This document shows, piece by piece, positions 17,479-61,178 of a DNA stretch of 61,178 nt. The notes beneath the pieces are model-generated. The model searched no databases and was not told the origin of the DNA. It saw only the letters and a list, made by a program, of their open reading frames with translations. The DNA comes from Patescibacteria group bacterium. Its GTDB lineage: Bacteria > Patescibacteriota > Patescibacteriia > Patescibacteriales > UBA12465. The position numbers and the translations under genes were made by a program. The stretch covers positions 1 to 61,178 of the forward strand of contig JALNZW010000008.1 of NCBI GenBank assembly GCA_023229115.1, written 5' to 3'. Position 1 is the first letter of the stretch. Each line of letters opens with the position of its first letter.

Positions 17479-17482
17479 ACTT

Positions 17483-19126: not shown

Positions 19127-19136
19127 TTATAAATTT

Positions 19137-20189
19137 ATGGGAATTGTTTCAAGTACAAAGAAGGGTTATTTAATAGAAAATTTAGCTACCTTAGTTGAAG
19201 CTGGAATAAATATTTCTGAGTGTCTTTTTATAATTTCAAATGGAATTAGAAATAAGTATTTTAAAAAAATTGTCTTAGATGTTAAAGAAGCGGTTGATGG
19301 TGGGTTCTCTTTGTGGCAATCATTTGAAAAGACGGGTATTTTTTCTAAAAGAGATATTTCCTTGATTATGATCGGAGAAAACTCCGGTCATTTAGTTGAA
19401 AATTTAAATATTTTAGCTCTACAGCATCAAAAAGAAAAATTTTTTAGATATAAAGTTTATTCGGCTTTAATGTATCCTAGTTTAGTTCTTTTTTTAGTTT
19501 TAATTATTGGAACTGGCATGGCTTGGTTTTTACTGCCAAAGTTATCAGTTGTTTTTACGCAATTAGGAGCTGAATTGCCTTTAATAACTAAAATAATGAT
19601 TTCGGTTGGTGTTTTTTTTGGTAATTATGGTTTGATTTTCTTTCCAATATTTTTTGTTTTGTTATTTTTATTTTTTTATTTTGTTTTTGTTAACAAAAAA
19701 ACAAAAGTAATTGGACAAAAATTTCTATTTAATTTTTTTAGCACAAGAAGATTGGTTTTAGAGTCAGAGCTTTCTCGTTTTGGTTATATTTTAGGCACAT
19801 TACTTCAGGCTGGATTTTCTATTAATGAGTCATTAAAGTTGTTAAATCAAGCTAGTCCCTTTCCTTTTTATGGTGATTTTTATTTGTATTTATCAGAGAG
19901 TGTTTCAGAGGGAATTTCTTTAAAAGATAGTTTTGCTAATTTTTCTAAATCTGAAAAACTAATTCCAAATTCTGTTCAAGAAATGATATTTGTCGGTGAG
20001 CGATCAGGTAAATTACCAGAAATACTTTTAAAGATTGGTAAAAATTATGAAGACAAACTAGAAATAACTACTAGAAATTTGTCTGCAATTTTAGAACCAG
20101 TTCTTTTAATTCTTGTTTGGGTGGGCGTGGTTATTTTAGCTTTAGCTATTATACTTCCTGTCTATAGTTTGATAAGCAATATTAACTAA
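19137..20189 (+). CDS. pilC: Type IV pilus platform protein (PilC/GspF family)
   Basis: The ORF track starts at 19113; the ATG at 19137 is preferred. Two GspF-type repeats and 3 TM. Confidence 0.85.
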   Translation: MGIVSSTKKGYLIENLATLVEAGINISECLFIISNGIRNKYFKKIVLDVKEAVDGGFSLWQSFEKTGIFSKRDISLIMIGENSGHLVENLNILALQHQKEKFFRYKVYSALMYPSLVLFLVLIIGTGMAWFLLPKLSVVFTQLGAELPLITKIMISVGVFFGNYGLIFFPIFFVLLFLFFYFVFVNKKTKVIGQKFLFNFFSTRRLVLESELSRFGYILGTLLQAGFSINESLKLLNQASPFPFYGDFYLYLSESVSEGISLKDSFANFSKSEKLIPNSVQEMIFVGERSGKLPEILLKIGKNYEDKLEITTRNLSAILEPVLLILVWVGVVILALAIILPVYSLISNIN

Positions 20190-20638
20190 TGCTTACTATG
20201 TTTTCTTTAAAGAATAAAGCTTTTACTTTATTGGAGATTATACTGACGGTCTCTATTTTTGTTTTATCAGCCTCTATTCTATCTCCAATTTATTTGTCTG
20301 CCAAAAACAGAGATGATTTAAGTACTAAAACTGATATTTTAGTCAGTTCTTTAAGGCGAGCTCAAATTTTATCAATTTCTGGTCAAGAAGATTCTTCCTG
20401 GGGTGTTAAAATATTAGAAGATAGTTTGGTTGTTTTTAAGGGGGATAGTTATCTTACTCGCGACACTAGTCAAGATGATGTTATTGCGGTTAATAAAAAT
20501 ATTTTAACCGAAGGTTTGGATGAGATTGTTTTTACTAAAATTTTTGGTGAAACAAGCAATATTGGTGATATCACATTAAAGACGAAAAATAAAGAAATCA
20601 TTATTAGTATTAATAGAAAGGGAATGATTGATTACTAG
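20189..20638 (+). CDS. Minor pilin / pseudopilin
   Basis: N-terminal class III signal KNKA|FTLLEIILTVSIFVL, with Ala at position -1. Confidence 0.7.
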   Translation: MLTMFSLKNKAFTLLEIILTVSIFVLSASILSPIYLSAKNRDDLSTKTDILVSSLRRAQILSISGQEDSSWGVKILEDSLVVFKGDSYLTRDTSQDDVIAVNKNILTEGLDEIVFTKIFGETSNIGDITLKTKNKEIIISINRKGMIDY

Positions 20639-20641
20639 CTT

Positions 20642-22459
20642 ATGTTTAATAAAATAAAAAATAGAATTACAGGCTTTAGTGGTATAGAAATTTTATTGGC
20701 TGGCTCAATAATGGCCTTGGTAATAACCTCTCTTTTGGGTCTTCTTTTTTATTCTAATGATGCCTTAAATAAAGATAACTCTAACTTACAAGCCTCTTTG
20801 ATCGCGAGTCAAGCCTTGGAAGTTGTTTCGACCATACGAGATAGGGGTTTTGATAATCTAATTGATGGAGTTCACGGTTTGTCTTTTTCGGGAGGAGAAT
20901 GGTCTTTTCTTGGTGAGAGTGATCAGGTGGGTGATTTTACTAGAGTGATTACTATTAGCACTGTTTCTGAAAATGTTAAAAAAATAGCTGTTTTAGTTAC
21001 TTGGTTTAAAAGTCCTGGAAGACTAGTTAGTATTTCTGAGTATAGATATTTAACTAATTGGCAAGAAACAGAACAAGCATCCTTGATAGATGTGGCTATT
21101 AATATTGATAGTGACTGGGAAGACGGTTATTGTGCAACTGTTACTTTAACAACCGAGTCAATTACCCCGATTATTTGGGACTTGGATATTATCTTAGATA
21201 CCTACCCTAAGAATGGTATTGTTAATAATGTCTGGGACGCTAATTGGTCATTTGCTGAACCAATTTTGAGTGTTTCTGGTCTTGCTGGCAATGAAACTAT
21301 TGTTTTTGGTAGTTCAATTAATTTTACTTATTGTGCCGATAGAGAAATAATTCCGCCTCCTTTAGGTCAGGCCAATTATTTAGAGGTTAATACTATTAAT
21401 AGTCGAGTTAACCCTGTTAATAAAAATCAAGTTATTGGCACAGAGCTACTAAATACTTCTTCAGCTATTTCTATAATATTAGAAGAAATAGTTGTTAATT
21501 GGTCGGGAGTTAATGCTAATACCAGAATATCATCAATTCAGATTAATGGTACAACCTTGTGGTCTGGTTCTGCTACCTCAGGATCAACTCTTACTTTGAG
21601 TAGTCCCTTTGTTTTGGGTCCACTGAGTGGCCCTTATTCAATTGTTTTTAATTTCAGTAAAAAAATAAACGGAATAGATTTTTATACTCGTTTTATAATG
21701 GAAGATTTTTCGGAAAAATTAGTTGATATTTTTGCTGGTGGTGGGGCAGACTTAATTCCTCCAGGGACAATTACTAATCTTAGTTCAACCGTTCAAGATC
21801 ATGAATCAGTTACTCTCTCCTGGACGGCACCGGGTGATGATGGAATGATCGGTTTGGCATCTTATTATGAAATTAGATATTCTCAAAATATTATAGATGA
21901 TAGTAATTGGGATTTAGCCACTATTTTTAGCACCCCTCCTAGTCCTGAAATAGCTGGCACTATTCAGTCCGCAAAAGTTAGTGGTTTGAGTTTGAATACA
22001 AATTATTATTTTGCTATTAAGACTTATGATGAAAGTGCTAATGTTTCTCTTCTTTCTAATGTTTTAAACGCCAGCACCACTAATTTAAGTGATTCTTCTT
22101 ATTTATATCTTAATATTGGGTCGGCGGTTTTAGGACCACCACCTCTTAGCAATAATTATGTTTCTGGTATTATTTTAGACAACAATGGCCTGAGCAATAT
22201 TTCTATTACTGGCATTACTGGTTCTTGGGGGTCTGACAAAATTAAACAAATTTATATTGATGGAATCTCAGTATGGAATAGAAATATTAGTTCTGGTGCT
22301 ATAGCCACTTTTTCTACCCCTTATGTTTTAACACCTTCCGGTGGTCCTTATAATTTAAGTTTGAGATTTCAAAAAGTTTTTACTGGGAAAACTATAGATT
22401 ACTTAGATATTATTTTGGGGGATGGTTCTGTAAAAAGAAGTGATAGTAAAAGTTTTTAA
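20642..22459 (+). CDS. Large pilin-like protein with an FN3 domain and duplicated beta modules (putative pilus-tip adhesin)
   Basis: N-terminus ITG|FSGIEILLAGSIMALV. FN3 signature VTLSWTAPGDDG...YEIRY...YYFAIKTYDESAN. A W-rich CBM-like segment DWEDGYCATVTLT...WDANWSF. Two ~115-aa paralogous modules. Confidence 0.65.
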   Translation: MFNKIKNRITGFSGIEILLAGSIMALVITSLLGLLFYSNDALNKDNSNLQASLIASQALEVVSTIRDRGFDNLIDGVHGLSFSGGEWSFLGESDQVGDFTRVITISTVSENVKKIAVLVTWFKSPGRLVSISEYRYLTNWQETEQASLIDVAINIDSDWEDGYCATVTLTTESITPIIWDLDIILDTYPKNGIVNNVWDANWSFAEPILSVSGLAGNETIVFGSSINFTYCADREIIPPPLGQANYLEVNTINSRVNPVNKNQVIGTELLNTSSAISIILEEIVVNWSGVNANTRISSIQINGTTLWSGSATSGSTLTLSSPFVLGPLSGPYSIVFNFSKKINGIDFYTRFIMEDFSEKLVDIFAGGGADLIPPGTITNLSSTVQDHESVTLSWTAPGDDGMIGLASYYEIRYSQNIIDDSNWDLATIFSTPPSPEIAGTIQSAKVSGLSLNTNYYFAIKTYDESANVSLLSNVLNASTTNLSDSSYLYLNIGSAVLGPPPLSNNYVSGIILDNNGLSNISITGITGSWGSDKIKQIYIDGISVWNRNISSGAIATFSTPYVLTPSGGPYNLSLRFQKVFTGKTIDYLDIILGDGSVKRSDSKSF

Positions 22460-22462
22460 ATT

Positions 22463-22984
22463 ATGATAATAAATAATATTTGTAAAAAAAAGAAAGCATT
22501 TACTTTGACAGAGACAATACTTTATATGAGCCTTTTTGTTGCTATTTTTGCTGCTCTATTTGCTTCTTTAAATATTTTTTATAGCAATAAAATAAAGAAT
22601 AGGACTATTTTAGAAGTTGAACAACAAGGTCAAATTATTTCGATGTTAATTGGTCAAGAAATAAGAAATGCTCAGTCTATTATTTCTCCTGTAGCTGGAG
22701 TTTCAGCTAATACTTTAATTTTAGAGCATTTGGATATTTTAAAAAGTCCATTATCTTTTTATTTATTAAATAATAAATTAATGATTGATGAAAATGGTAG
22801 TTCTTTTAATTTGAGTAATTCTAATGTAGTGGTTGGTAATTTGATTTTTGAAAATAATTCAGTGATAAATGAAGCGCAAAGCATTTCTTTTAGTTTTGAT
22901 GTTTCGTATAACTCTGCTAATAGTAAAAATGAATATAAGTATAGCAAAGTTTTTTCTGGCACAGTTAATTTGCTTAAAAAGTGA
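22463..22984 (+). CDS. Minor pilin / pseudopilin
   Basis: KKKA|FTLTETILYMSLFVAIF N-terminus. Confidence 0.65.
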   Translation: MIINNICKKKKAFTLTETILYMSLFVAIFAALFASLNIFYSNKIKNRTILEVEQQGQIISMLIGQEIRNAQSIISPVAGVSANTLILEHLDILKSPLSFYLLNNKLMIDENGSSFNLSNSNVVVGNLIFENNSVINEAQSISFSFDVSYNSANSKNEYKYSKVFSGTVNLLKK

Positions 22985-22985
22985 T

Positions 22986-23387
22986 ATGTTAAAAACAAAC
23001 AAACAAGCAGGATTTATTGTTTTGATTACTGTTCTAATAATTAGTTCAATAGTTTTATCTATTTCTTTGATGATTGTTTTAGTAAATATTAATTCCAGTA
23101 AAAATAGTTTAAGTACTAATAATGCTAATCAGGCTAGATTGTTGGCTAATACTTGCTCAGAGTATGCTCTGCAAGAGATTGCTTTTGATACTAATATTTT
23201 TGGTTCTTTTGTTTTGTCTTTGGGTGATGATACTTGTAATTATTCTATTTATCATGGTACTGGAGAGGAAAGAGTTATAGAATCTTGGTCTGAGATTCGG
23301 GGGAGTGTTAGACGGGAAAGGGTTGTTGTTGATTCTTTTAGTCCAAATATAAATATTGCTTCTTGGCAGGAAATCGCTGATTTTTAA
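22986..23387 (+). CDS. PilX/GspK-like minor pilin
   Basis: The in-frame ATG at 22986 is preferred over the track start at 22869, which overlaps the previous gene. N-terminus MLKTNKQAGFIVLITVLIISSIVL. Confidence 0.55.
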   Translation: MLKTNKQAGFIVLITVLIISSIVLSISLMIVLVNINSSKNSLSTNNANQARLLANTCSEYALQEIAFDTNIFGSFVLSLGDDTCNYSIYHGTGEERVIESWSEIRGSVRRERVVVDSFSPNINIASWQEIADF

Positions 23388-23573
23388 TTATATATTTTGT
23401 ACACATATTTTATTTTTATCAAAAATTTGGAGATTTTTAAATTTTGTGTTATATTGTTTTTGAGATAAAAAAATAATAAAGGTCGATATGTTTGTTATTT
23501 TTTTATTATATAAATTAATTAATTTAATTTTTTATAAATTGCTTTTTAGTAATTTATAAAAATAAAAAAAATT

Positions 23574-24014
23574 ATGAATAAAAAAAGAAATCAAGGTTTC
23601 ACATTATTAGAAATCTTGTTAGCAGTAGCTGCTTTGGTTATCTTAGCTAGTATTGTTATCTTGGCTATTAATCCAGGAAAACAGTTGGCTGATACTAGAG
23701 ACGCTCAAAGATGGTCAGACGTAAACACAATTTTAAATGGTGTTTATCAATATGCTATTGACAATGATGGTAATTTACCAACATCAATTCCGGCTGATAC
23801 AGACACTGGAGCTGATATTTGTATTGAAACAACGAAGGCTACATCTTGTAACGTTGATTTGTCTGTTTTAATTCCTAAGTATTTGGTTGCATTACCAAGC
23901 GATCCTCATGCTACAAGTACTGCTAACTACACAGTGGTATCTTCTTCAACTACTGGCAGAATAACAGTTGAAGCTCCTTTAGCAGAAAACAAAACTATTA
24001 CAGCTACAAGATAG
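23574..24014 (+). CDS. pilA: Major type IV pilin
   Basis: MNKKRNQG|FTLLEILLAVAALVILASIV, 146 aa, own A+T-rich promoter region and a strong terminator. Confidence 0.8.
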   Translation: MNKKRNQGFTLLEILLAVAALVILASIVILAINPGKQLADTRDAQRWSDVNTILNGVYQYAIDNDGNLPTSIPADTDTGADICIETTKATSCNVDLSVLIPKYLVALPSDPHATSTANYTVVSSSTTGRITVEAPLAENKTITATR

Positions 24015-26528: not shown

Positions 26529-29500
26529 ATGTCAAACAAAGAAAACAAAACAACAGAAACAGCTGAGGATAAAGAATTTAGAAAAAAGGCAACCGAAGCT
26601 GGTTTTAGTGAGGTGAATACAAAAGAGGAGATTAAAAAAATAGAGGTTAGATTAAAGAGACTGGATCGAGGTGGTGTAGAGCAGTTTAAAGGTGAAAAAG
26701 AAGTTTTGGTTGAAAGATTAAAAAAATATGGCGTAGAATATGTTAGCAAAAAAGCTAAAGGCTCAGTTGAAAAAATAAATAAATTAGCTGAGGAGCCAGA
26801 AGAAAAAAAGATTGCAGAGGGGGGAAAGGAAAAAATTGAAGAAGTTAAGGAAAGTTTAGAGAATGAATTTGAAGGAAATAAATCAAAAGAGAATTTTGCT
26901 GAAGATTTTGAAACCATTACCGTAAAAAGATCTAATGGAAGCATTGAAAAAGATTGGAAACTTATGGGGATTCAAGATAGCATGGCTACTGTTATGAAAA
27001 AAAATGATTCAGGTGAAATTCTTAGAAAATTTATTCCCGTAAAAGAATTAGAACTTTTTAATAATAAAAAATATTCTGAAGAAGAAAAGGAGCTTGTAAA
27101 TTCAGAAAAAAATGAGGAAGTTTTAAACAAGGAGTCGTCTAGTGAAGAGGTAGAAAATAAACAGGAAGTTGAAATTTCAAAAATGTTAAAAAAAGAATTA
27201 GAATCATTGGGTATTAATGATGAAAAATTAAAAGGTGAGGCTTATAAAAAATTTAACGAACTAAGTTCTGGTTCGAAACTTTTGGTTTTAAAAAATTTAA
27301 AAGGGATAATTTTAGAGGAGTTTACAGAGGAATCAAGGTCTGAGGCCAATTCTTCGGTGGGTGAGGTTAAGGGACTTTTTAGCAAAATCAGAAAAAGTTT
27401 TAAAGAGAATCGTTTGGCTAACAAAAGTAGGGAGGAAAAATTAAAAGAATTAAATAAAAAAGGCATTAATGAAAATCATGAGGGAAAATTAAATTCTTTA
27501 TCGGAAATAATTAGTACTCTAGAAATAGATGTATCTGAAAAAGATGGCAAAACAGAAGTCTCTTTGTTAAAAACTAAAGAGGGCATGAATGAAGATCAGA
27601 AAAAGGCTATTGATGAATTAAATTTAGCTGCTAATGAGTTTTTAAGCATTCCCAAAGAGATGGCCTATGAAAGTGCTAGTAAAACTGACCAAAAAAAATA
27701 TGAAGATGCTCGAAATAAATATTTAGAATCTCGAACTAAAATAGTTGAAACTTTGGGTGCTTCCAAAGAAAACTTAAGTAATTTAAATAAAGCTGATCTT
27801 CAATTAAGAATGGTTAGGGATTTTAGTAATGATTCTGTTTTGAGTGAAGAATGGAAACAGGCCGTTAAAAATCCAGGATTTTTTAAGAAAATTATTTCAT
27901 CAATGAGCAGTAAAGAGAAAGCTGCTTATACCGCTTCGGGTTATGCTGTTCGTTCAATAACTGGAGCATTATCTTTGTCAGCTTTAGCTATTCCGCTTGT
28001 AATGGGTATTGGCGCTCTTAGGTCCAATAAAAGGGCTAAGGAAAAAATAAAAACACAGGACAAAAAAGCTGTCTATAAAGAAAAGAAAGAAAGTCCATTG
28101 GCCTTAAAAAGGAAAAATATTAAAAAACAAATGGATAAATTAGTTCCAGCTGAATTCCTTTTGGAGCCCGATGCTTGGATGAAGAGCAAGGATGCTAATC
28201 AAGAAGATGTAAAAAAATATCTTGATTTAAAAATTGAGTTTTTAAAACTTGATGAGAAATTGACTCAAGAAAATATTGAAAAATTAAATATAGCTAGTGC
28301 TGAAAGCTTGGTTGATAAATTAGAATCTTTATCTGAAAAAGTAAAGAATGAATATTTAACTGAGTCTTCCAAGGAAAAGCCAGATTATAATAAATTAAAA
28401 GAATTAACTGAGTCATTAAGACTTAGAATGATGTTCACCAGAGAGAAGGTTTCTAAAGAATTGGTTAATTTTGGCTCTAATGAAAAAAAGGCATTAAATT
28501 ATTTGGATTTACAAAGAAGCTTGGACGAGGCTGAACTTATTTTGGCCGGAGAAGAAATAAATGAGGTTTTGTTTTCATTAGAGGAAAGCAACAAAAATCA
28601 ATTAGCTAGAATGGATAGAGTGGGTGTTGACGGTAAATTTATTGCTGGTAAAAAACTTTTAGATAAAATCTTAGATAGACATGCCGAAGATTTATCCAGG
28701 GAAAGGAAAAATTATATTATCAAAAAAACTATCTATGGTGCTTTAACTGCTGGTGCTTTTGCTGGAGTTGGTGCTTTGATTAGAGAGGGGCAGGATTTAC
28801 TTTCCAATATTGACACTTCTGATTTTGAACAAGGTTTAACTAATAATGAAGATTTTGAAAAAGCTGTTATGAGCGGTTTTTCAGCTATTAATGAAGCTAA
28901 CGAGTTTAGTGCTGTTGACTCAGTCGGTATGGCTAATTCTGTAAATGGAGTTGAGGCAAACAATTTTGATTTCGAGAATAGTTTTATAAAAGAAAATGTT
29001 TTAGAATCAAATCTGGGATCAGTGGAAAGTTATGTGGAGGTTGACAGTGGCATAGGCGAGAGTTTATCTTTAGCTGGAGTTGACGTTGAAAATATGAGCC
29101 CTAAGGCCATTGAATCTTTGGAGAAAATGGGCAATGTAAATAAGGTTGTTACCTTAGAAAAAGGAAATGGAGTTTCTAAAATATTTGGTGGCCACATGAA
29201 CAATGAATATAAAGTAAATTTTGTCGATGCTGAAACTGGCGAAATAACTGAAGCAGCTGCTTTTAGCAAAACAGTTCATCCTGGTGACCAAGTTATGCTT
29301 GGTGAAGATGGAGAAGTTTATGTTGTTTGTAAAAGTGGAGTTAAAAATAACCCACTTTATGGAGCAGTTAAAGAAAATATTAATGAGGGTGGAGTAGTTA
29401 GAGAAAAAATAGAACCGATAAAACCAATAGATATGTCCAAGTATGAGCTTGGCTTAGATGAAAATGGTAAAATGAATTTTGTTAAAAATAATATAGTGGA

Positions 29501-30833
29501 AAATCAAGTTGCGGGAGGTAACATTGTTGGCAGTGAAGTAGAAGGTGAAATTGCCAACGCTAATCCCTTGGAAGACTGGGATGTAAGTTTAGAAAATGGA
29601 ACCTTAATTAATGATGATGGAGCAACACTTGTTGGTACTAATGAAATTCCTAATTTTTCAAACGATAAAGTAGCTAGTGTTGAGCTTGATGGTGACAAAT
29701 ATATAATAAAAATGAAAGATGGAAGTTCGGTTGTCTTTAATGAAATGCCAGCTGGAGAAGAAGTTGAAGGTGTGGAATTGCCAAAAATTTATCAATTTCA
29801 AGAAATTATTCCAGCTAATAATCCTGTTCAGGATGATCAATTGGGAAATATTTTAGTGGGTGACCAAGGTGGTGTTTATGTTACCCCAGAGAGCGCTAGT
29901 AACGCCAACGAAATGATTAGTGGGAATTTAAATAGTAATTTGTTGGAAAATTTTAGTGAACATGGAGTTAATTATCCTAATAAGACAATTAGTGTGGACA
30001 ATAATATTATTGATTTCAAAACTTCAAGTTTTGGTTTGAATAAAATTAGCAATATTGCGCCAGAATATGGTGGTGGCGGTGGTCAACCTGTCTATTTCAA
30101 GGTTGTTTACGACAATGGAGCTATGGAAACTTTTAAGCCAGAATTGAATACAGCTGGAGAAATGACTTATGTTAAAGCTGGTGATGGCTTGGTTGATGTG
30201 TCATCTGATGTTGAAGGTGAGCTGGGAGCTGTAGTAGAGGGCGGTCTTGATTTGGGAGAGAATAATTTAAATAGTCTAGCCGAAAGATATGAATGGGCTA
30301 GTTATTTAAAGGCTGGTGGATGGGAGAATGTTAAAATTGAGGATGAGGGCAAGTCAATAATAATTGATAATTATAAAGTAAAATTTCCTGACTATGTTAA
30401 AGATATTAATGAAATAAAATTAATAAACCCCTTAGTTCAAGAAGATGGCAGTATTAAGTTTGAGATTCAATATGCCAATGGTCCAATAAGGTCGATCGAT
30501 GATTCATTTGTGACTGTTTTGGAAGAAATTACTCCAGCCGTAGAAAATGCTAGTGAGAATTTAGCAAGCGTTAGAGATGTTTTTAGTAGCCCTACTAAAA
30601 TCAAAGAGGCTTTAGGTGATTTTTCAGAGAAAATTAGAGCAATATCAACTGATAATGATGGTAATTTTGCCTTGAAGATGAAAGATGGCAAGGTGATAGA
30701 TATTAGCGTCAGCGAAGATGTTATTGAGGTTGGAGCTTTGAAAACTGAATATGTAAACATTGAAGATGGTAAAATATCTAGTGAAAAATTAAAGGAGGCA
30801 GTTGTTAAACATTTAGAAAATATGACTAGATAG
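26529..30833 (+). CDS. Giant (1434 aa) membrane-anchored hypothetical protein
   Basis: E/K-rich coiled-coil N-terminal 470 aa. Two hydrophobic segments (ITGALSLSALAIPLVMGIGAL and IYGALTAGAFAGVGALI) lie about 260 aa apart. The G/V/N/E-rich C-terminal half carries recurring short beta motifs (YIIKMKDGSSVVF, FALKMKDGKVIDI, VYFKVVYDNGAMETF, IKFEIQYANGPIRSI). Confidence 0.65.
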   Translation: MSNKENKTTETAEDKEFRKKATEAGFSEVNTKEEIKKIEVRLKRLDRGGVEQFKGEKEVLVERLKKYGVEYVSKKAKGSVEKINKLAEEPEEKKIAEGGKEKIEEVKESLENEFEGNKSKENFAEDFETITVKRSNGSIEKDWKLMGIQDSMATVMKKNDSGEILRKFIPVKELELFNNKKYSEEEKELVNSEKNEEVLNKESSSEEVENKQEVEISKMLKKELESLGINDEKLKGEAYKKFNELSSGSKLLVLKNLKGIILEEFTEESRSEANSSVGEVKGLFSKIRKSFKENRLANKSREEKLKELNKKGINENHEGKLNSLSEIISTLEIDVSEKDGKTEVSLLKTKEGMNEDQKKAIDELNLAANEFLSIPKEMAYESASKTDQKKYEDARNKYLESRTKIVETLGASKENLSNLNKADLQLRMVRDFSNDSVLSEEWKQAVKNPGFFKKIISSMSSKEKAAYTASGYAVRSITGALSLSALAIPLVMGIGALRSNKRAKEKIKTQDKKAVYKEKKESPLALKRKNIKKQMDKLVPAEFLLEPDAWMKSKDANQEDVKKYLDLKIEFLKLDEKLTQENIEKLNIASAESLVDKLESLSEKVKNEYLTESSKEKPDYNKLKELTESLRLRMMFTREKVSKELVNFGSNEKKALNYLDLQRSLDEAELILAGEEINEVLFSLEESNKNQLARMDRVGVDGKFIAGKKLLDKILDRHAEDLSRERKNYIIKKTIYGALTAGAFAGVGALIREGQDLLSNIDTSDFEQGLTNNEDFEKAVMSGFSAINEANEFSAVDSVGMANSVNGVEANNFDFENSFIKENVLESNLGSVESYVEVDSGIGESLSLAGVDVENMSPKAIESLEKMGNVNKVVTLEKGNGVSKIFGGHMNNEYKVNFVDAETGEITEAAAFSKTVHPGDQVMLGEDGEVYVVCKSGVKNNPLYGAVKENINEGGVVREKIEPIKPIDMSKYELGLDENGKMNFVKNNIVENQVAGGNIVGSEVEGEIANANPLEDWDVSLENGTLINDDGATLVGTNEIPNFSNDKVASVELDGDKYIIKMKDGSSVVFNEMPAGEEVEGVELPKIYQFQEIIPANNPVQDDQLGNILVGDQGGVYVTPESASNANEMISGNLNSNLLENFSEHGVNYPNKTISVDNNIIDFKTSSFGLNKISNIAPEYGGGGGQPVYFKVVYDNGAMETFKPELNTAGEMTYVKAGDGLVDVSSDVEGELGAVVEGGLDLGENNLNSLAERYEWASYLKAGGWENVKIEDEGKSIIIDNYKVKFPDYVKDINEIKLINPLVQEDGSIKFEIQYANGPIRSIDDSFVTVLEEITPAVENASENLASVRDVFSSPTKIKEALGDFSEKIRAISTDNDGNFALKMKDGKVIDISVSEDVIEVGALKTEYVNIEDGKISSEKLKEAVVKHLENMTR

Positions 30834-30916: not shown

Positions 30917-32722
30917 ATGAATATCATGAATAGATTAAAAAATTATATAAAAAGAGTAGTCAAAAAAGACAAATTTTTATTATTTGTTATTCTTTTTTCT
31001 GTGTTTTTTTTGTTAATGACTTCAGTTTTGCCTAATTTTCAAGAAAAAAACGATTTTTTAAAGTTTTTCTCACCCGATGAAAATGCCAATTATGTCTTTA
31101 CTAAACTATATGCTCAAACTGGCGATCTTTATGTTTTTGAAAAATATAATCTTATAGCCGAAGATATTGTTCGTCCTAGAAGTTATATTAGCGAAGGTGG
31201 TTTTATTAAACCAGTTAGTTTCTTGGGGATGACTATTTATTATGGTTTTTTAGCTAAAGTTTTTGGCATTGGCATAATTCCTTATTTAACTCCTTTTTTT
31301 GCCGCTCTGGCTTTGGTCTTTTATTATTTGTTGATCAAGAAATTATTTGATAGTAAAAATGCTTTTATCTCCACTTTGCTATTATTTTCCTTTCCTGTCT
31401 TAATTTATTATTCGGCTCGCAGTTTGTTTCACAATGTTTTATTTCTGTCTTTTTTGATTATTGGCCTTTATTTTCTGTCAGTCTTATTTGAAAAAAGAAT
31501 ACCTTCGCCGGAAAAAGATGAAGATAAATATTTAAAAAAATTATTTTCTGTCGATTTTTTGTTTTCAGCTCTTAGTGGTTTGTTTTTTGGTATGGCCATC
31601 GCCGTTCGATCTTCTGAGCTTATTTGGTTATTAATGGCTGCCTTTTTGTTTTTGATTATAAAAATTAAAAAATTAAGTTTATTAAGATTAACAGTTCTTG
31701 TTTCTTTCTTTGTTTTAGCTCTCTTGCCTGTTTTTTATAATAATCAAATTTTATATGGCTCTCCTTTTTATGGTGGTTATTATGAAATGAATAAGTCTAT
31801 TAGCCAAATTAGCCAGGCTGGGGGAGGGATAATAAAATCTGTTTTTACTGGTAGCTTAGCAGATGTTAAAATTCTTTTAAAATTTGTTTTTAAAACTGTT
31901 TTTTATTTCGGTTTTTACCCTCTTCAATCCTTGGAAATGTTTGATAAATATTTTGTGAAAATGTTTTGGTATTTATGTTGGCCAGCAGTGTTGGGTTTTG
32001 CTGCTTATATTTTTACAGAGAAAAAGAAGTTAAAGAAATTTTATCCTTATTTTGTTTCCTGGTTTTTAGCCTCAATCTTCTTGATTTTTTATTATGGTTC
32101 TTGGAAGTTTGTTGATAATCCTGATCCAAGTCGATTTACAATCGGTAATTCTTATACCCGTTATTGGTTACCAGTTTATATTGGTATCTTGCCCTTTGTT
32201 TCTTATTTTATATTAAAAATTGGAGTAATCTTTGTTTTTATAAAAAAAGAGAAAATACGAAAAATATTTTCAAATTCTTTGTCAGTATTATTTCTTGTAT
32301 CCCTAGTGTTCTTATCCTTCAAATATGTTTATAGTGGCTCAGAGGAGGGTTTAAAACATTATTTTCCCAAAACAGAAAGAGCTATAGCAGAGGTTTCTAG
32401 GGTTATTGATTTAACTGAAAATAATTCAGTAGTAATAACTGAATACCATGATAAATTTTTATTTCCAGAAAGAAAAGTAATTGTTGGTCGTTTTAATGAT
32501 GACAACATGAACAGAAATTATAGCAGGCTGGTTGATTATTTGCCGGTTTATTATTTTAATTTTACTTTTCCGGAAAAGGATTTAGAATATTTAAATAGCA
32601 GAAGGTTAAAGGATTTTGATTTACAGATTGAATTAGTAGAGGAAATTAATGAAACCTTTTCTTTGTATAAACTTTATTCATTCTGTCATCCCAGCGAAAG
32701 CTGGGATCCAGTTAAATATTGA
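30917..32722 (+). CDS. Polytopic GT-C type glycosyltransferase (GT39/ArnT-like)
   Basis: 601 aa with more than 10 TM, an acidic first loop (FSPDENANYVF) and a soluble C-terminal ~130 aa. The family call is tentative. Confidence 0.45.
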   Translation: MNIMNRLKNYIKRVVKKDKFLLFVILFSVFFLLMTSVLPNFQEKNDFLKFFSPDENANYVFTKLYAQTGDLYVFEKYNLIAEDIVRPRSYISEGGFIKPVSFLGMTIYYGFLAKVFGIGIIPYLTPFFAALALVFYYLLIKKLFDSKNAFISTLLLFSFPVLIYYSARSLFHNVLFLSFLIIGLYFLSVLFEKRIPSPEKDEDKYLKKLFSVDFLFSALSGLFFGMAIAVRSSELIWLLMAAFLFLIIKIKKLSLLRLTVLVSFFVLALLPVFYNNQILYGSPFYGGYYEMNKSISQISQAGGGIIKSVFTGSLADVKILLKFVFKTVFYFGFYPLQSLEMFDKYFVKMFWYLCWPAVLGFAAYIFTEKKKLKKFYPYFVSWFLASIFLIFYYGSWKFVDNPDPSRFTIGNSYTRYWLPVYIGILPFVSYFILKIGVIFVFIKKEKIRKIFSNSLSVLFLVSLVFLSFKYVYSGSEEGLKHYFPKTERAIAEVSRVIDLTENNSVVITEYHDKFLFPERKVIVGRFNDDNMNRNYSRLVDYLPVYYFNFTFPEKDLEYLNSRRLKDFDLQIELVEEINETFSLYKLYSFCHPSESWDPVKY

Positions 32723-37558: not shown

Positions 37559-37665
37559 ATCGTTGACATTATTTGTTATATTTTATAATATGTCTATATT
37601 GTAGCATAATTTGTGCTGTATAACAATTTTTGTTTTACACATAATTTATTCAATAAATTCAAATT

Positions 37666-37752
37666 GGAGAGGTGGCTGAGCGGCTGAAAGCAGCATCCTG
37701 CTAAGATGTTAAGGGGGAAACCCCTTCAAGGGTTCGAATCCCTTCCTCTCCG
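37666..37752 (+). tRNA. tRNA-Ser (anticodon GCT), CCA not encoded
   Basis: Acceptor ggagagg/cctctcc, anticodon loop ctGCTaa, long variable arm aaggggg-aaa-cccctt, T-arm aaggg-ttcgaat-ccctt. Confidence 0.9.
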
Positions 37753-37758
37753 CGAACG

Positions 37759-37786
37759 AAAAAAGACGCCAAAATGGCGTCTTTTT
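37759..37786. terminator. Hairpin terminator after tRNA-Ser
   Basis: aaaaagacgcc-aaaat-ggcgtcttttt. Confidence 0.65.
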
Positions 37787-37794
37787 GAGTGAGT

Positions 37795-37962
37795 GGAGAG
37801 GCGGCAAGCCAACTGCTTGGCTTGCCGGGGATGAGAAAGCCGGAGCGATGTGCCGAAGTAAAACGTAGGCACCGCGAGGCGGGGTCGCGAGTTCTTAGTG
37901 AACGCAAATCGCGTAGCGATTAAGTGAACTTAGAAACTCGTGACCGAATCCCTTCCTCTCCG
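37795..37962 (+). ncRNA. G+C-rich structured element B with tRNA-Ser-like termini (candidate novel ncRNA)
   Basis: Starts with ggagagg and ends with cctctccg, which are the acceptor strands of the adjacent tRNA. Inside are a perfect 10-bp hairpin (37803-37826), gggat/atccc, gcg-gtgcc/ggcac-cgc, an 11-bp helix 37883-93/37934-45 with a G.U that is valid only on the plus strand, and aatcgc/gcgatt. Confidence 0.45.
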
Positions 37963-37967
37963 CGAAC
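37945..37967 (+). repeat. Exact 23-nt direct copy of the tRNA-Ser(GCT) 3' end and trailer (original at 37735-37757)
   Basis: cgaatcccttcctctccgcgaac occurs at both positions. Confidence 0.9.
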
Positions 37968-38008
37968 AAAAATGACCCAAATTTCTTTGGGTCATTTTTT
38001 GTTTGTTG
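37961..38008 (+). repeat. 48-nt repeat (cgcgaac plus terminator hairpin plus gtttgttg), left copy
   Basis: cgcgaacaaaaatgacccaaatttctttgggtcattttttgtttgttg. Matches 60851-60898 except for 2 loop positions. Confidence 0.9.
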
Positions 38009-38090
38009 ACAGCAGAGAAGGGATTCGAAAGACGGAAACGATGCTTGAACGAAGTAAACACTGCTGAGACTAAGCCAAGATGTTTGTTAA
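38009..38090 (+). other. Decayed, A+T-shifted partial copy of the G+C-rich element (B')
   Basis: gaagggattcgaaagacggaaacgatgcttgaacgaagtaaac aligns with C ggaggaattcgaaagccggaggcgatgtgcggagtgaaac, but the helices are no longer complementary. Confidence 0.4.
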
Positions 38091-38182
38091 CCGATTATTT
38101 AAACAGGATTATAAAAAATGATCAAGGATTAAAAAATAATCAATTTAACAAACTTAGGTCTGTTTTACTTTATAAATTAAAT

Positions 38183-51015: not shown

Positions 51016-51102
51016 GGAGAGGTGCCAGAGTGGTTGAATGGAACAGTCTTGAAAACTGTCGTGCCTTAACGGGTACCGAGGGTTCGAATCCCTCCCTCTC
51101 CG
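51016..51102 (+). tRNA. tRNA-Ser (anticodon TGA), CCA not encoded
   Basis: Acceptor ggagagg/cctctcc, anticodon loop ctTGAaa, long variable arm, T-arm gaggg-ttcgaat-ccctc. Confidence 0.9.
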
Positions 51103-51110
51103 CGAACAAA

Positions 51111-58271: not shown

Positions 58272-58343
58272 GCCTCCATAGTTTAATGGATAGAACACAA
58301 GCTTCCGAAGCTTGGGATAGGGGTTCGATTCCCTTTGGAGGCA
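58272..58343 (+). tRNA. tRNA-Arg (anticodon CCG)
   Basis: Acceptor gcctcca/tggaggc, anticodon stem caagc/gcttg with loop ttCCGaa, T-arm agggg-ttcgatt-ccctt. Confidence 0.85.
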
Positions 58344-58468
58344 CTAATGATCTGTATCCCAAAAAGTGGATACAAAAGCGTCTTTTAGGTGGAGCATGAA
58401 TCAAATAAAAAAATAATATTAGTAAACCTAAGCACTTAAATTTTCGGGTTTAAGTTATAATTAATTTT

Positions 58469-59933: not shown

Positions 59934-60779
59934 ATGAAAAATAAAATAAAATTATTTCAAAAACAAAAAGTTAGAGCTGTTTGGGATGAAAATTCAGAGG
60001 AATGGCTTTTTTCTGTTATTGATGTTGTTAAAATATTAACCAATCAATCCAATTATCAATCAGCAAGAAAATATTGGAATAAGTTAGCAGAAAGGCTTAA
60101 AAATGAAGGTTCTCAAGTGGTGACAAAATGTCACCGGTTGAAATTATTAGCTCCCGATGGAAAAATGAGAGAAACAGATGTCGCTAGCACAAAAACTGTT
60201 TTACGCTTAATTCAATCTATTCCCTCTAAAAAAGCTGAGCCTTTTAAATTGTGGCTAGCTGAAGTTGGTAATGATCGAATCAATGAATCTCAAAGCCCAG
60301 AACTGACTATAGACAGAGCTATGATTTCTTATAGAAATTTAGGTTATAGTGAAGAATGGATTAATACTAGATTACAGTCAATTCAGTTTCGCAAAGAGCT
60401 CACTGATGAATGGAAAAGATCCGGGGTCAAAGAGGGTTCAGAATTTGCTATTTTAACAAATATTATGACTAAAGAGTGGGCTGGAAAAACTATTAAAGAA
60501 TATAAGAAATTTAAAGGTTTAAAGAAGGAGGGCTTGAGAGACAATATGACTAGCTTGGAATTAGCTTTAAATATATTAGCAGAAACATCAACTACCGAAT
60601 TAAGCAAAGCATTAAAACCAAGCAACATAGATAAAAATAAGGATATTGCTGAGCGTGGAGGAAAAATAGCTGGAACTGCTCGTAAAAACATTGAGGCGCA
60701 AACCAAGAGATCGGTTATTAGCCCAAAAAATTCCAAAAATTTAAGATTAAAAAAACAAGACAGCGACCCGAGTGCCTAA
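59934..60779 (+). CDS. Bro-N domain / DinD-like (DNA-damage-inducible protein D family) protein
   Basis: N-terminus KVRAVWDENSEEWLFSVIDVVKILT (Bro-N). C-terminal half KGLKKEGLRDNMTSLELALNILAETST...GGKIAGTARKNIE resembles E. coli DinD. Confidence 0.65.
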   Translation: MKNKIKLFQKQKVRAVWDENSEEWLFSVIDVVKILTNQSNYQSARKYWNKLAERLKNEGSQVVTKCHRLKLLAPDGKMRETDVASTKTVLRLIQSIPSKKAEPFKLWLAEVGNDRINESQSPELTIDRAMISYRNLGYSEEWINTRLQSIQFRKELTDEWKRSGVKEGSEFAILTNIMTKEWAGKTIKEYKKFKGLKKEGLRDNMTSLELALNILAETSTTELSKALKPSNIDKNKDIAERGGKIAGTARKNIEAQTKRSVISPKNSKNLRLKKQDSDPSA

Positions 60780-60850
60780 AATCTAGTACTGAAAAATCAT
60801 CAAAAAACCCTTATAATATTGCTATGTGGTGGTACTTAATTCTAGTAGCC

Positions 60851-60898
60851 CGCGAACAAAAATGACCCAAACTGCTTTGGGTCATTTTTTGTTTGTTG
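60851..60898 (+). repeat. 48-nt repeat, right copy
   Basis: cgcgaacaaaaatgacccaaactgctttgggtcattttttgtttgttg. Two loop substitutions relative to 37961-38008. Confidence 0.9.
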
Positions 60899-61066
60899 TG
60901 ATAGTAGGGGAGGAATTCGAAAGCCGGAGGCGATGTGCGGAGTGAAACGACGCACCGCCGAGGCCAGGTCAGAGCGCTTAGTGAGCGAAGTCGAACGAAG
61001 TGAGGCGAGCGAGAATTAGCGGCGTGTGACCGCATCTCTCCCTCTCAGTGGTGAATAAGTTCACTC
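60899..61066 (+). ncRNA. G+C-rich structured element C, homologous to B (candidate novel ncRNA)
   Basis: Shares gaaagccggag(g)cgatgtgc..agt.aaacg..gcaccgc.gaggc with B. Helices gggag/ctccc (60908-12/61038-42), gcg-gtgcg/cgcac-cgc (60930-39/60951-58) and ggtca/tgacc (60967-71/61027-31) show compensatory changes relative to B. Confidence 0.45.
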
Positions 61067-61178
61067 ACATATTGGACTGCGAAGCAGGACAAAATGTATG
61101 CAAATAGGATTTAAGTATCACAATTGTAAAGGATTTGGTAATCTGTACAATTATGCAATTAAACATAATTATATGATT

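Follow-up and report, generated by a model that had tools for sequence, protein, structure and literature searches.

What kind of genetic entity is the foldable sequence that occurs in diverged copies on one bacterial chromosome, and does it act as RNA, as DNA or as coding sequence? The chromosome belongs to Patescibacteria (CPR), bacteria with tiny genomes that account for a large share of bacterial diversity and for which we know of almost no mobile elements or non-coding RNAs of their own. The window, that is, the entire stretch of 61,178 nucleotides analyzed here, contains three copies: B, C and the decayed A'. The initial annotation had interpreted B and C as a functional structured RNA. 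The relevant features are listed below, with P1, P2 and P3 denoting the three helices of the fold.

37563-37591: promoter-like site for the tRNA-Ser(GCT) gene, from a promoter scan
37666..37753 (+): tRNA-Ser(GCT) gene, the 'host' of copy B (ARAGORN; Rfam tRNA, 56.4 bits)
37735..37757 (+): first copy of a 23-nt direct repeat, CGAATCCCTTCCTCTCCGCGAAC, starting at T-loop C56 and reaching 4-5 nt into the trailer beyond the tRNA 3' end
37760..37786 (+): terminator-like hairpin 1, AAAAAGACGCC AAAA TGGCGTCTTTTT, part of the inserted B unit
37795..37962 (+): copy B, architecture 'type 2'; fold -88.6 kcal/mol, z = -7.3; covariance model 90.2 bits
37795-37801: copy B, acceptor-like 5' strand GGAGAGG
37802-37827: copy B, conserved hairpin
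37828-37832: copy B, T-stem 5' strand GGGAT, followed by the junction GAGAAA
37839-37880: copy B, P2
37883-37945: copy B, P3
37945-37962: copy B, 3' arm, identical to the tRNA 3'-end repeat from C56 (37945) to G73 (37962)
37945..37967 (+): second copy of the 23-nt direct repeat, an exact match, forming the 3' strand of copy B P1
37968..37999 (+): terminator-like hairpin 2, 14-bp stem and T run
about 38012..38095 (+): A', a decayed and partial copy with 'type 1' architecture, discernible in its 5' strand and over the initial ~30 nt of its core
60850..60857 (+): CCGCGAAC, the sole upstream remnant at copy C, comprising the 3 terminal nt of a tRNA-Ser 3' end and trailer
60858..60889 (+): terminator-like hairpin directly 5' of copy C
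60907..61048 (+): copy C, architecture 'type 1'; fold; covariance model 90.5 bits at 60909-61041
60907-60918: copy C, P1 5' strand GGGGAGGAATTC
60919-60922: copy C, junction GAAA
60923-60964: copy C, P2
60967-61031: copy C, P3
61031-61048: copy C, diverged tRNA-3'-end-like arm CGCATCTCTCCCTCTCAG

B and C are homologous, as the initial annotation held when it described C as a second, diverged copy. They align over 131 and 133 nt, respectively, with 96 of 137 columns identical (about 70%), and BLAST aligns them at 73.5% over 132 nt (E = 2e-8). A three-anchor pattern derived from the two copies matches just these two sites in the window and nothing in 100 dinucleotide shuffles. A covariance model seeded with 7 copies from other genomes, with both B and C left out, scores the two almost equally (C 90.5 and B 90.2 bits, E about 4e-20) and everything else in the window at 10.3 bits or less. 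The sequences compared earlier were found where they had been placed, except that the B segment starting with gaaagccgg begins at 37835 rather than 37836. The compensatory change from gtgcC/Ggcac in B (37850-54 / 37868-72) to gtgcG/Cgcac in C (60935-39 / 60951-55) is correct, and so is the difference in the outer helix, ggtcG.Tgacc in B versus ggtcA-Tgacc in C; of 80 family members, 78 have G.U here and two, C among them, have A-U. A further proposed change, gggaT/Atccc to gggaG/Ctccc, involves string pairs that can both be found, at 37828/37948 and 60908/61038, yet the positions are not homologous: the C homologue of GGGAT/ATCCC in B is GGAAT/ATCTC, mismatches included. The purine-rich central part of C is the distal, variable portion of helix P3.

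The copies differ in their state of preservation. B is unusually stable (z = -7.3), whereas the stability of C alone is ordinary (z = -1.1), so that the evidence for structure comes from the family rather than from C singly. Near-identical counterparts of B are found in three other genomes, and hairpin 1 is retained along with the B-type unit in L041, L063, L084 and L024; an orthologue of C is present in another genome (L086). Copy C is an 'orphan' without a tRNA, given that only the 3'-end remnant at 60850..60857 is left upstream. Hairpin 2 and its flanks (37960-38043) are 86% identical to 60850-60935. Beyond the first ~30 nt of the core, A' has drifted to A+T and is missed by the covariance model.

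Open frames on the minus strand (37701..37907 and 60811..61035) speak for a fragment of a protein-coding gene. They cross the tRNA gene and the terminators, however, and the other frames are full of stops in six-frame translation; indels shift the reading frame between B and C, and substitutions are paired across helices, not arranged by codon position. This explanation is refuted, and the earlier judgment that the copies are not a decaying protein fragment holds.

Further homologues, for which a search had been recommended, are numerous. Pattern scans and the covariance model added at least about 200 copies from CPR genomes and metagenomes, with a median unit length of 196 nt and a compact architecture of 150-240 nt. 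CPR genomes contribute 74 true copies in about 60 genomes, plus 7 via the covariance model only, and the metagenome scan at least 126 copies from at least 120 loci. By record titles, at least 8 CPR candidate phyla or lineages contain the family (Falkow-, Parcu-, Sacchari-, Campbell-, Yonath-, Vogel-, Kaiser- and Paceibacteria), which, as far as seen, is confined to Patescibacteria/CPR. Because both copy sets were gathered by sequence patterns, the invariance of the anchors is partly by construction; 24-31 copies came from the model alone. Copies are dispersed, with 4 pattern matches on one 500-kb contig (L049, L058, L084 and L087). Three scans of 2.9 million viral contigs gave no copies, only chance matches in G+C-rich coding DNA or nothing.

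The element matches no family in Rfam 15 (4227 models, including riboswitches, ribozymes, tmRNA, RNase P, SRP, 6S and HEARO) at the gathering threshold, which in the window only three tRNAs pass. With E values up to 10 in 60700-61178 and 37600-38150, no hit reaches its gathering score, and overlaps with B or C remain at 10-17 bits, well short of it. ARAGORN calls neither B nor C as tRNA or tmRNA, and the copies contain only acceptor-like and T-stem-like pairings. Several identities were rejected by eye: a hammerhead (GAAA is present, CUGAUGA is absent), a K-turn (the bulge is 1-nt, not 3-nt), group I/II intron boundaries (the supposed intron starts with CGAAU and ends in C) and a TnpB/IscB guide-RNA-like layout in which the 3' arm would be the guide (the neighbourhood lacks a nuclease gene, and P1 sequesters the 'guide'). 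A hairpin ribozyme, the RNase P P4-like GAAAG(U)CCGG, the SRP-like CCAGGUCAG in copy C, and a permuted or split tRNA were set aside in the same way. A retron ncRNA was discarded as well, there being neither an adjacent reverse transcriptase nor a conserved neighbouring gene. Full-text literature searches and a check of one paper yielded no account of such an element, so this large CPR family of about 200-base folded repeats is apparently undescribed.

All copies share a three-way junction that consists of P1 and the hairpins P2 and P3. Each unit starts with a terminator hairpin, followed by a strand complementary to the tRNA T stem and partly to the acceptor stem. The core comprises the junction GAAA, P2, whose internal loop GGA/GA is conserved, and P3, which is long and variable and has GGUC/GACC as its closing helix, including a conserved G.T. 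The 3' arm repeats the tRNA from T-loop C56 to the 3' end, and P1 is a mimic of the T stem and, in part, also of the acceptor stem. Single-sequence folds recover the same junction, and the fold is specific to the tRNA-sense strand. In structural alignments fitted to the covariance model, 94.3% of the cells in the first covariation set are paired, compared with 78% in shuffles and 26-48% in slid controls, and 25 of the 32 pairs change on both sides (387 compensatory cells). In a second, independent set, 93.6% of the cells are paired, 31 of 32 pairs show two-sided changes, and 875 cells are compensatory. The unpaired GAAA and GGA/GA are conserved even in copies that only the model found. An alignment of 73 copies with MAFFT and RNAalifold misaligned the variable hairpins and so recovered nothing beyond the invariant bases of the helices; it was replaced by a hand-annotated seed and the covariance model. 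The family exists and its fold is real: with both covariation sets in agreement, the initial annotation was right in recognizing a folded nucleic acid that is conserved, strand-specific and rich in compensatory changes.

The proposal to check whether homologues lie after tRNA-Ser proved key, since copies follow tRNA genes. A tRNA or tmRNA on the same strand is located upstream of about 50 of the 74 copies in genomes and of 83 of 126 among the metagenome matches listed, and units with such a gene upstream are always on its strand. The host genes represent about 20 tRNA identities and tmRNA. Copies with such a gene upstream lie just past its terminator, 36-105 nt from the tRNA end (mostly 55-92, mode 63-64 nt). 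The exact repeat begins at C56 in about 40 cases, usually ending 0-5 nt past the tRNA. It is complete (18/18) in 52 of 123 copies, the rest retaining the T-loop and T-stem part with the acceptor part decayed; most type-1 copies, and about 40% of 3' arms, have lost this acceptor part or carry it in decayed form. P1 agrees in its 5' strand with the local tRNA, up to 7/7 in the acceptor part of several type-2 copies, and the type-2 5' strands GGAGAGG, GGAGAGA and GGAGAGT co-vary with three Ser isoacceptors. Given this match, simple cut-and-paste is insufficient, and either cognate targeting or long residence with compensatory change is needed.

In classical tRNA- and tmRNA-integrating islands, the flanking repeat extends from the T loop to the 3' end, and B is likewise flanked by a direct repeat of the tRNA 3' part, exact over 23 nt (37735-57 / 37945-67). 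This geometry would suit inert scars without any selected structure, either att sites left behind by larger islands or prophages that integrate at tRNAs, or tRNA pseudogenes in decay; so would a Bro-N gene beside C and, at the same tRNA in L011, an island that includes an excisionase-like HTH gene. We regard such an origin as very improbable. About 200 copies share one compact architecture with no integrase near, none occurs in the viral contigs, and the compensatory changes across distant CPR classes imply selection on the fold, so that this explanation is largely refuted by covariation. The 22.8-kb segment between A' and C is not an island either, because it includes ValRS and other core genes, together with tRNAs and AhpC, and no integrase.

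The pairing rules bear on whether the fold is that of RNA or DNA. Among about 3,800 cells in P2 and P3, G.T and A.C are similarly rare (12 vs 10 and 34 vs 16, against 3,763 Watson-Crick), whereas in the adjacent tRNAs G.U reaches 90 (5.1%) vs 8 A.C (0.5%). GNA triloops, mostly C-GNA-G, make up 129 of 366 hairpin loops (35%, compared with 2.3% in shuffles), and GNRA and UNCG loops together only 7 of 366 (2%). The family thus departs from the generic pairing rules of structured RNA, namely, G.U far in excess of A.C and GNRA or UNCG loops. C-GNA-G is the 'mini-hairpin DNA' motif (PMC13037366), and GCGNAGC forms an extraordinarily stable mini-hairpin in DNA, with a much weaker counterpart in RNA (PMC13037366; PMC3201870). 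A terminator-like hairpin with a T run lies directly 5' of each copy, and a promoter scan of the interval between this terminator and the unit found none. We infer that the fold is selected in single-stranded DNA rather than in RNA, because G.U is avoided like A.C, the triloops are of the C-GNA-G type, and a terminator lies directly upstream.

The principal competing explanation is a tRNA-like non-coding RNA, produced by read-through from the tRNA promoter, in which P1 would mimic an acceptor/T-stem minihelix and the junction would bind a protein or act as a decoy or regulator for factors of the cognate tRNA; the mimicry would entail excision by RNase P and RNase Z, followed by CCA addition. 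Strong, strand-specific covariation and the retention of unpaired GAAA and GGA/GA even in model-only copies agree with this explanation, as does the second terminator that usually follows the unit. The full 7-bp acceptor-like stem of type-2 copies, matching and co-varying with the neighbouring tRNA, is what a tRNA-mimicking RNA would show and counts against the insertion element that we favor below. The constant placement of the unit on the strand of the tRNA would be equally predicted by co-transcription, and the one conserved G.U (G.T) pair and the purine-rich loops are also compatible with RNA. We consider this explanation a serious rival, but less likely than the insertion element. Apart from the DNA-like pairing and loops, the upstream terminator with no intervening promoter, and the lack of an Rfam match, the acceptor part is absent or decayed in many copies, the identity pair G3.U70 of tRNA-Ala is replaced by A3-T70 in two Ala-linked copies, and occurrence is patchy, with arrays and dead copies. 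Of the original 'functional structured RNA', therefore, the selected fold stands, but its function as RNA is not supported as stated: G.U avoidance, GNA triloops, the upstream terminator, arm decay and the pattern of arrays, absence and degeneration all speak against it. A small insertion element folded at the DNA level fits the observed behaviour, with a role as RNA possible.

The DNA-like pairing rules and mini-hairpin loops could also reflect a cis-acting host signal, for example, for single-strand initiation or priming, or a hairpin promoter, that would operate while the tRNA-sense strand is exposed as a single strand, as in lagging-strand synthesis or following DNA uptake, and would be kept beside highly transcribed tRNA genes. 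In RSF1010 ssiA and the phage G4 origin, primase sites are marked by mini-hairpins, among them CCGAAGG and GCGAAAGC (PMC13037366), and GCCGAAGGC-like motifs are found in several cores. The folding strand has a positive GC skew at 84 of 128 loci, a bias that is confounded by tRNA orientation. A host signal is improbable nonetheless, as it leaves the tRNA 3'-end repeat, the tandem arrays, the decayed copies and the presence/absence pattern unexplained.

Comparison of related loci points to mobility. In L012, tRNA-Ser(GCT) is directly joined to the flank, whereas in L041 the same flank lies behind a 204-nt B-type unit; the unit is also absent in the relatives L011 and L012. B-type units are near-identical across four genomes with different downstream flanks, and a unit of the Asn type is found behind tRNA-Gln. 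Tandem arrays consist of 2-4 units, and a locus of a few kb can hold as many as 4 copies. The reading that we favor, with about even confidence, is that B and C belong to an unannotated family of non-autonomous selfish insertion elements at tRNA and tmRNA 3' ends. The anatomy of the units suggests that the whole unit would insert, formally as a ~200-nt circle recombining at the T-loop '|CGAAT', leaving the tRNA intact with the terminator of the unit and displacing the old 3' end behind the core. The host gene would survive because the unit brings along both a terminator and a tRNA 3' end of its own. The junction may be the structure recognized by a trans-encoded candidate enzyme, such as an HUH-type nuclease, a Xer-like or another recombinase, and the fold would be under selection while the DNA is single-stranded, for instance as lagging-strand template or as an intermediate. 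More specifically, we tentatively suggest an element of a hitherto unknown kind, ~200 nt long, that travels as a folded single strand (effectively a three-armed mini-circle), uses the universal tRNA/tmRNA T arm as its landing pad, and is mobilized across CPR by a host-encoded or unlinked enzyme.

The genes around the copies reveal no linked enzyme. The repeat-bounded segment (about 200 nt) contains no ORF and no integrase gene, and a Pfam search of the window genes revealed no recombinase. When ORFs lying within 4-5 kb of about 190 copies were clustered all against all, no protein family turned up at more than 12 loci. The ten largest neighbour clusters are housekeeping or syntenic genes, as judged by sequence reading rather than Pfam, and the neighbours checked by sequence resemble YraN, LepA, the CCA-adding enzyme, Ddl and SmpB. 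A recurrent 244-aa neighbour protein had no match in a Pfam search.

Several known systems share some of these properties. T-loop islands of tRNA and tmRNA genes (with a P4-type tyrosine integrase, or integrase-less cis-mobilisable derivatives) have the same T loop-to-3' end repeat, an intact tRNA, tandem accretion, and occupied and empty sites. In contrast to them, CPR units are about 200 nt long, lack an integrase or any gene, share one covarying three-way junction behind about 20 tRNA species, and have a 5' strand that pairs with the repeated 3' end. REP/REPIN-RAYT systems and MITEs (Correia, ERIC, RUP, BOX) are also short, multi-copy, extragenic, hairpin-forming and non-autonomous, with the enzyme, if any, acting in trans from a single gene elsewhere, and many dispersed copies per genome are a feature of the CPR family, too. 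The CPR units, however, have no terminal GTAG-type tetranucleotide or short fixed target duplication, are strictly tied to tRNA 3' ends, and form a three-way junction, not a simple hairpin. Assignment to MITEs in the sense of fixed terminal inverted repeats and a short fixed duplication was rejected: the P1 strands are complementary but follow the local tRNA, and the repeat is at least 18-23 nt long and ends at the tRNA end.

Folded single-strand sites (attC, CTX-phage attP(+)/XerCD, IS200/IS605 ends, and the AAV repeat with Rep) resemble the CPR units in the strand-specific fold, DNA-like pairing rules, and conservation of a few unpaired or mismatched bases with stems free to covary; the T-shaped AAV terminal repeat is, moreover, a three-way junction with triloop-capped arms. 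They differ in that the CPR units have no RYYYAAC/GTTRRRY, dif-like site or two similar end hairpins, and that their target is the tRNA T arm. An integron attC was rejected because the consensus, read by eye, ends in GGGATTC ... GAATCCC and forms a three-way junction, and an IS200/IS605-type PATE because P2 and P3 resemble each other neither in sequence nor in shape and because of the long direct repeat. In the mini-hairpin initiation signals of the phage G4 origin and RSF1010 ssiA, C-GNA-G / GCGNAGC likewise caps arms, but these are single plasmid or phage sites, whereas the CPR units are repeated, chromosomal and flanked by tRNA 3'-end repeats. Finally, tRNA-like RNAs (the tmRNA domain, YrlA Y RNA, viral tRNA-like structures and mascRNA) share acceptor/T-stem mimicry and location at, or origin from, tRNA genes. 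Unlike these RNAs, the CPR unit has a 100-nt junction in place of the T loop and no D or anticodon arm, often lacks the acceptor part, avoids G.U, and goes unrecognized by ARAGORN and Rfam.

If the units are gene-less, tRNA-targeting elements of single-stranded DNA, a recombinase or nuclease activity common to CPR is implied, and the units would provide a marker for strain-level genome dynamics and a compact natural system for T-arm targeting. If they function as RNA instead, they would constitute a new, equally novel class of tRNA mimics, a minihelix with the T loop replaced by a conserved junction. Under both readings, the family offers a testable way into CPR biology.

Some minor observations concern the surroundings of the copies. 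The Bro-N gene adjoins copy C, and the island at the same tRNA in L011 contains type I restriction-modification genes in addition to the excisionase-like HTH gene. Assemblies already break at this locus owing to the element.

Two full copies of a G+C-rich folded repeat of about 200 nt, B and C, and a decayed third copy, A', lie in the window together with three tRNA genes.

Copies of the element and tRNA genes in the window
37666-37753, tRNA-Ser(GCT)
37735-57 and 37945-67, 23-nt exact repeat of the tRNA-Ser(GCT) 3' end, beginning in the T loop
37795-37962, (+), copy B
about 38012-38095, (+), A'
51016-51103, tRNA-Ser(TGA)
58272-58344, tRNA-Arg(CCG)
60907-61048, (+), copy C

The initial annotation recognized C as a second copy of B, and this homology holds: 96 of 137 aligned columns are shared (BLAST E = 2e-8), the strings quoted for both copies are present (that of B begins at 37835, not 37836), and a three-anchor pattern common to the two copies matches only these two sites in the window and nothing in shuffles. 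The order at B is tRNA-Ser(GCT), a terminator hairpin, B, the 23-nt repeat, a second terminator and A'. Preceding C are the final 3 nt of a tRNA-Ser end, followed by a trailer and terminator matching those at B, and this stretch is 86% identical to 37960-38043; C terminates in a diverged tRNA-3'-end-like arm and is an orphan without a tRNA. The element is not a decaying protein fragment, in agreement with the initial annotation: a coding reading on the minus strand is rejected because the ORFs traverse the tRNA and terminators, and the frame shifts between B and C.

Twenty diverse copies, folded singly, all adopt one architecture, which is strand-specific, with purine-rich loops and a single conserved G.U(T) pair (78/80 and 111/117 copies).

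Shared architecture of the element
P1, 5' strand with 3' arm: ATTC/GAAT, T-stem-like 5 bp, acceptor-like pairs of variable number
J1/2, junction GAAA
P2, GCC-GGA-stem ... stem-GA-GGC
J2/3, 2-nt junction
P3, long hairpin GGUCG ... CGUGACC; conserved CUUAG/CUUAG segment, variable tip

The purine-rich stretch of C is this variable tip of P3. Two of the three compensatory changes originally proposed between B and C are right, namely, the C-G pair of P2 that becomes G-C and the basal G.U pair of P3 that becomes A-U, but the third pairs non-homologous positions. Folded singly, B is better than its shuffles (z = -7.3), and C is no better than its own (z = -1.1); a covariance model seeded with seven copies, all from other genomes, gives 90.5 bits for C and 90.2 bits for B.

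Further homologs are abundant. A 24-base three-anchor pattern, scanned over one genome per GTDB species, hits 86 loci, the matches comprising 74 true members and 16 chance ones in G+C-rich coding DNA; a looser pattern yields at least 120 metagenomic loci with at least 126 copies, and searching the fetched loci with the covariance model adds copies of greater divergence, a single locus often containing 2-4. Pattern scanning of viral contigs gave no true copy. Covariation was scored over the 32 modelled pairs in model-based alignments.

Covariation in the two sets of copies
Genome copies: 94.3% of cells paired (shuffled 78%, slid 26-48%); 25/32 pairs changed on both sides; 387 compensatory cells
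Metagenome copies, among the matches listed: 93.6% of cells paired (shuffled 70%, slid 28-44%); 31/32 pairs changed on both sides; 875 compensatory cells

In copies found only by the model, covariation extends even to the "invariant" helices, with GCC/GGC in P2a replaced by GAC/GUC or GGC/GCC, and GGUC/GACC at the P3 base by GUCC/GGAC or GCUC/GAGC. Despite alignments fitted to the model and copy sets chosen by pattern, the effect size and the slid controls make the fold secure across the family.

The family is linked to tRNA genes. A same-strand tRNA or tmRNA (ARAGORN) ends 36-105 nt, mostly 55-92 nt, 5' of the GAAAG anchor in about 50 of the 74 genome copies and in 83 of the 126 metagenome copies among the matches listed; copies lacking one are mostly close to contig ends. 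Besides tmRNA, the linked genes are tRNAs for Ser (four anticodons), Gly, Ala, Gln, Pro, Cys, Asp, Glu, Tyr, Phe, Leu, Val, Arg, His, Lys, Met, Trp and Asn. For about 40 genome copies, the 3' arm repeats the tRNA exactly, starting at T-loop position C56 and usually ending 0-5 nt past the tRNA; repeats of 33-59 nt take in the terminator and mark tandem units. Among 123 distinct tRNA-adjacent copies, the 3' arm is identical to the tRNA at 18/18 positions in 52 and at 15/18 or more in 70, and the remainder retain the T-loop and T-stem part with a decayed acceptor part. The median distance from tRNA end to repeat end is 196 nt. In about 70% of copies (type 1, C-like), the partner of the 5' strand is the T-stem strand plus a few extra bases. 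Type 2 (B-like) has a 7-nt acceptor-like strand that matches the local tRNA, then a conserved hairpin (AGCAAGCCA....TGGCTTGC) and the T-stem strand; thus, three different Ser 3' ends are paired by GGAGAGG, GGAGAGA and GGAGAGT, tmRNA by GGAGATG, and Gly by GCAGGTA.

This placement is also what would be expected of the main rival explanation, a tRNA-minihelix RNA that RNase P and RNase Z would cut out of read-through transcripts, and the element had originally been read as a functional structured RNA. The covarying fold bears out the structured part of that reading, but the RNA level is less well supported: four observations argue that the fold is selected as DNA. First, G.T pairs are about as rare as A.C: in P2 and P3, with the conserved G.T column omitted, G.T versus A.C counts are 12 vs 10 among 1,592 cells and 34 vs 16 among 2,313 cells, compared with 90 vs 8 (G.U, 5.1% of pairs) for 146 neighbouring tRNAs, counted in their acceptor and T stems. 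Second, triloops make up 192 and GNA loops 129 of the 366 hairpin loops predicted in 179 distinct cores, the GNA loops being mostly C-GNA-G (2.3% GNA in shuffles); GCGNAGC occurs 65 times in 80 sequences, and GNRA/UNCG account for only 7 of the 366; the terminator hairpins just 5' of the units mostly have tetraloops. GCGNAGC and C-GNA-G are "mini-hairpin DNA" motifs, of exceptional stability in DNA but far weaker in RNA, that occur at single-strand replication initiation sites (PMC13037366; PMC3201870). Third, A' and C each directly follow a terminator-like hairpin with its T run, and B follows a similar hairpin; a scan between these hairpins and the three copies gave no promoter-like site. 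Fourth, the acceptor-like part is dispensable; of the Ala-linked copies, two have A3-T70 where tRNA-Ala has G3.U70, and a third keeps G. All four would be compatible with transcription of the units, and we regard the minihelix RNA as the less likely reading. A CUGC tetraloop is seen in 13 of 103 predicted terminator loops beside units (e.g., window 60858-60889; L014, L017 and L028), and the hairpin inside type 2 units often has the same loop.

Comparison of relatives gives signs of insertion. At an empty site in Falkowbacteria HGW-1 (locus L012), CCAAGAATATTTAGTATCGG... lies directly 3' of tRNA-Ser(GCT), and in locus L041 a B-type unit of 204 nt precedes that flank, which aligns over more than 130 nt; the unit is also absent from the related locus L011. 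B-type units with their own terminator are near-identical in four genomes with different downstream flanks. One lineage with an Asn-type 3' arm is found behind tRNA-Asn, behind tRNA-Gln of a different 3' end, and second in a Gln array; the 3' arm thus belongs to the unit itself. Units often stand in arrays of 2-4, and A' is in decay.

The reading that we favour, at about even chances, is that the units are a non-autonomous insertion element of tRNA and tmRNA 3' ends. The free unit would formally be a circle of about 200 nt (3' arm, trailer, terminator, 5' strand, core), in which the terminator hairpin would close P1 into a three-armed molecule. Joining the T loop at "|CGAAT" would leave the tRNA intact at its 3' end, now followed by the unit's terminator, and would place the old 3' end behind the core. 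The conserved unpaired GAAA and GGA/GA of the junction and the G.T pair might be recognized, on the tRNA-sense strand, by a putative unlinked enzyme, and the fit of the 5' strand to new tRNAs could reflect targeting of cognate tRNAs, compensatory change over a long residence, or copying. A host single-strand DNA signal would share the DNA-level selection and the mini-hairpin motifs, but is improbable given the filled and empty sites; inert att scars would account for the repeated tRNA ends and, set against the covariation, are very improbable.

The element is rated a new kind because it has no match in Rfam 15 (E up to 10), no viral copy, no description found in the full-text literature, and no fit to known classes: islands, MITEs, REPINs, IS200/605 derivatives, attC sites, retrons and tRNA-like RNAs were considered, and it misses their defining features.

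In relatives, the tRNA-Ser(GCT) end also has other DNA beside it. In L011 (1-5470), a complete type I restriction-modification system, together with an HTH_17 (excisionase-like) gene, occupies its 3' side in place of the element, which makes this tRNA end a hotspot for larger islands as well. A Bro-N domain gene (window 59934-60779) stops 70 nt before C's unit, and a stretch resembling its 3' end (GACCCGAGTGCC) lies directly 3' of tRNA-Ser(GCT) in two other genomes (L012:5690-5760; L041 downstream flank), which hints that a Bro-N-carrying element might also have used this end. Upstream of the real tRNA-Ser(GCT), relatives have one or two tRNA-Ser 5'-end elements per locus (L010:60-110, L011:5800-5930, L012:5870-5920), consisting of GGAGAGGTG, a G+C-rich hairpin (TCCACGT...ACGTGG) and GCT; these look like 5' counterparts of the 3'-end units, and none is present in the window.

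No protein family recurs beside the units among those compared. Within 3 kb of units in 8 loci (e.g., L188:~11960-12700) lies a gene for a 244-aa protein that matches nothing in Pfam and has a "...YWAEGTK..." motif and an HTH-like region at its N terminus; this could be a candidate homing-endonuclease-like gene with a putative link to the element. Three other assemblies of the window's organism (L007, L008 and L009) break at most about 50 nt upstream or about 140 nt downstream of C's unit, and the window itself ends 130 nt past it (60825-61178 region), due either to the repeat or to something just downstream; in L086, a promoter-like TTTACA-N17-TATGAT follows the orthologous copy of C.

Host names in record titles are Falkow-, Parcu-, Sacchari-, Campbell-, Yonath-, Vogel-, Kaiser- and Paceibacteria and unclassified "Patescibacteria group"; a few are labelled otherwise, by title only ("uncultured Gammaproteobacteria", from co-assemblies, one "Nanoarchaeia", one "Planctomycetota"). 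True copies on contigs titled Nanoarchaeia, Planctomycetota, Proteobacteria or Peptococcaceae (L043, DATJQC010000088.1; L055, L073, L082) reflect either mis-binning or a wider host range. The window is an ordinary CPR (Patescibacteria) chromosomal stretch of about 31% G+C, also present in assemblies from NCBI (GCA_028681355.1), ENA and Logan; among named relatives, those closest to the DUF5673 protein adjoining tRNA-Ser are from Candidatus Falkowbacteria and other Patescibacteria. Its genes, none of those searched against Pfam being for a recombinase or transposase, are housekeeping ones (IleRS, ValRS, GatB, a type IV pilus cluster, PBP2, LexA-like peptidase, ABC transporters), and four large ORFs (15-3494, 11736-13397, 26529-30833 and 30917-32722; 1159, 553, 1434 and 601 aa) match no Pfam family at E up to 1e-5. 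The type IV pilus/competence-like cluster (17017-24014), which comprises a response regulator, a PilB-like ATPase, a PilC-like platform protein, a pilin with an N-methylation motif and a CBM2/fn3 protein, may matter if the element travels as imported single-stranded DNA.
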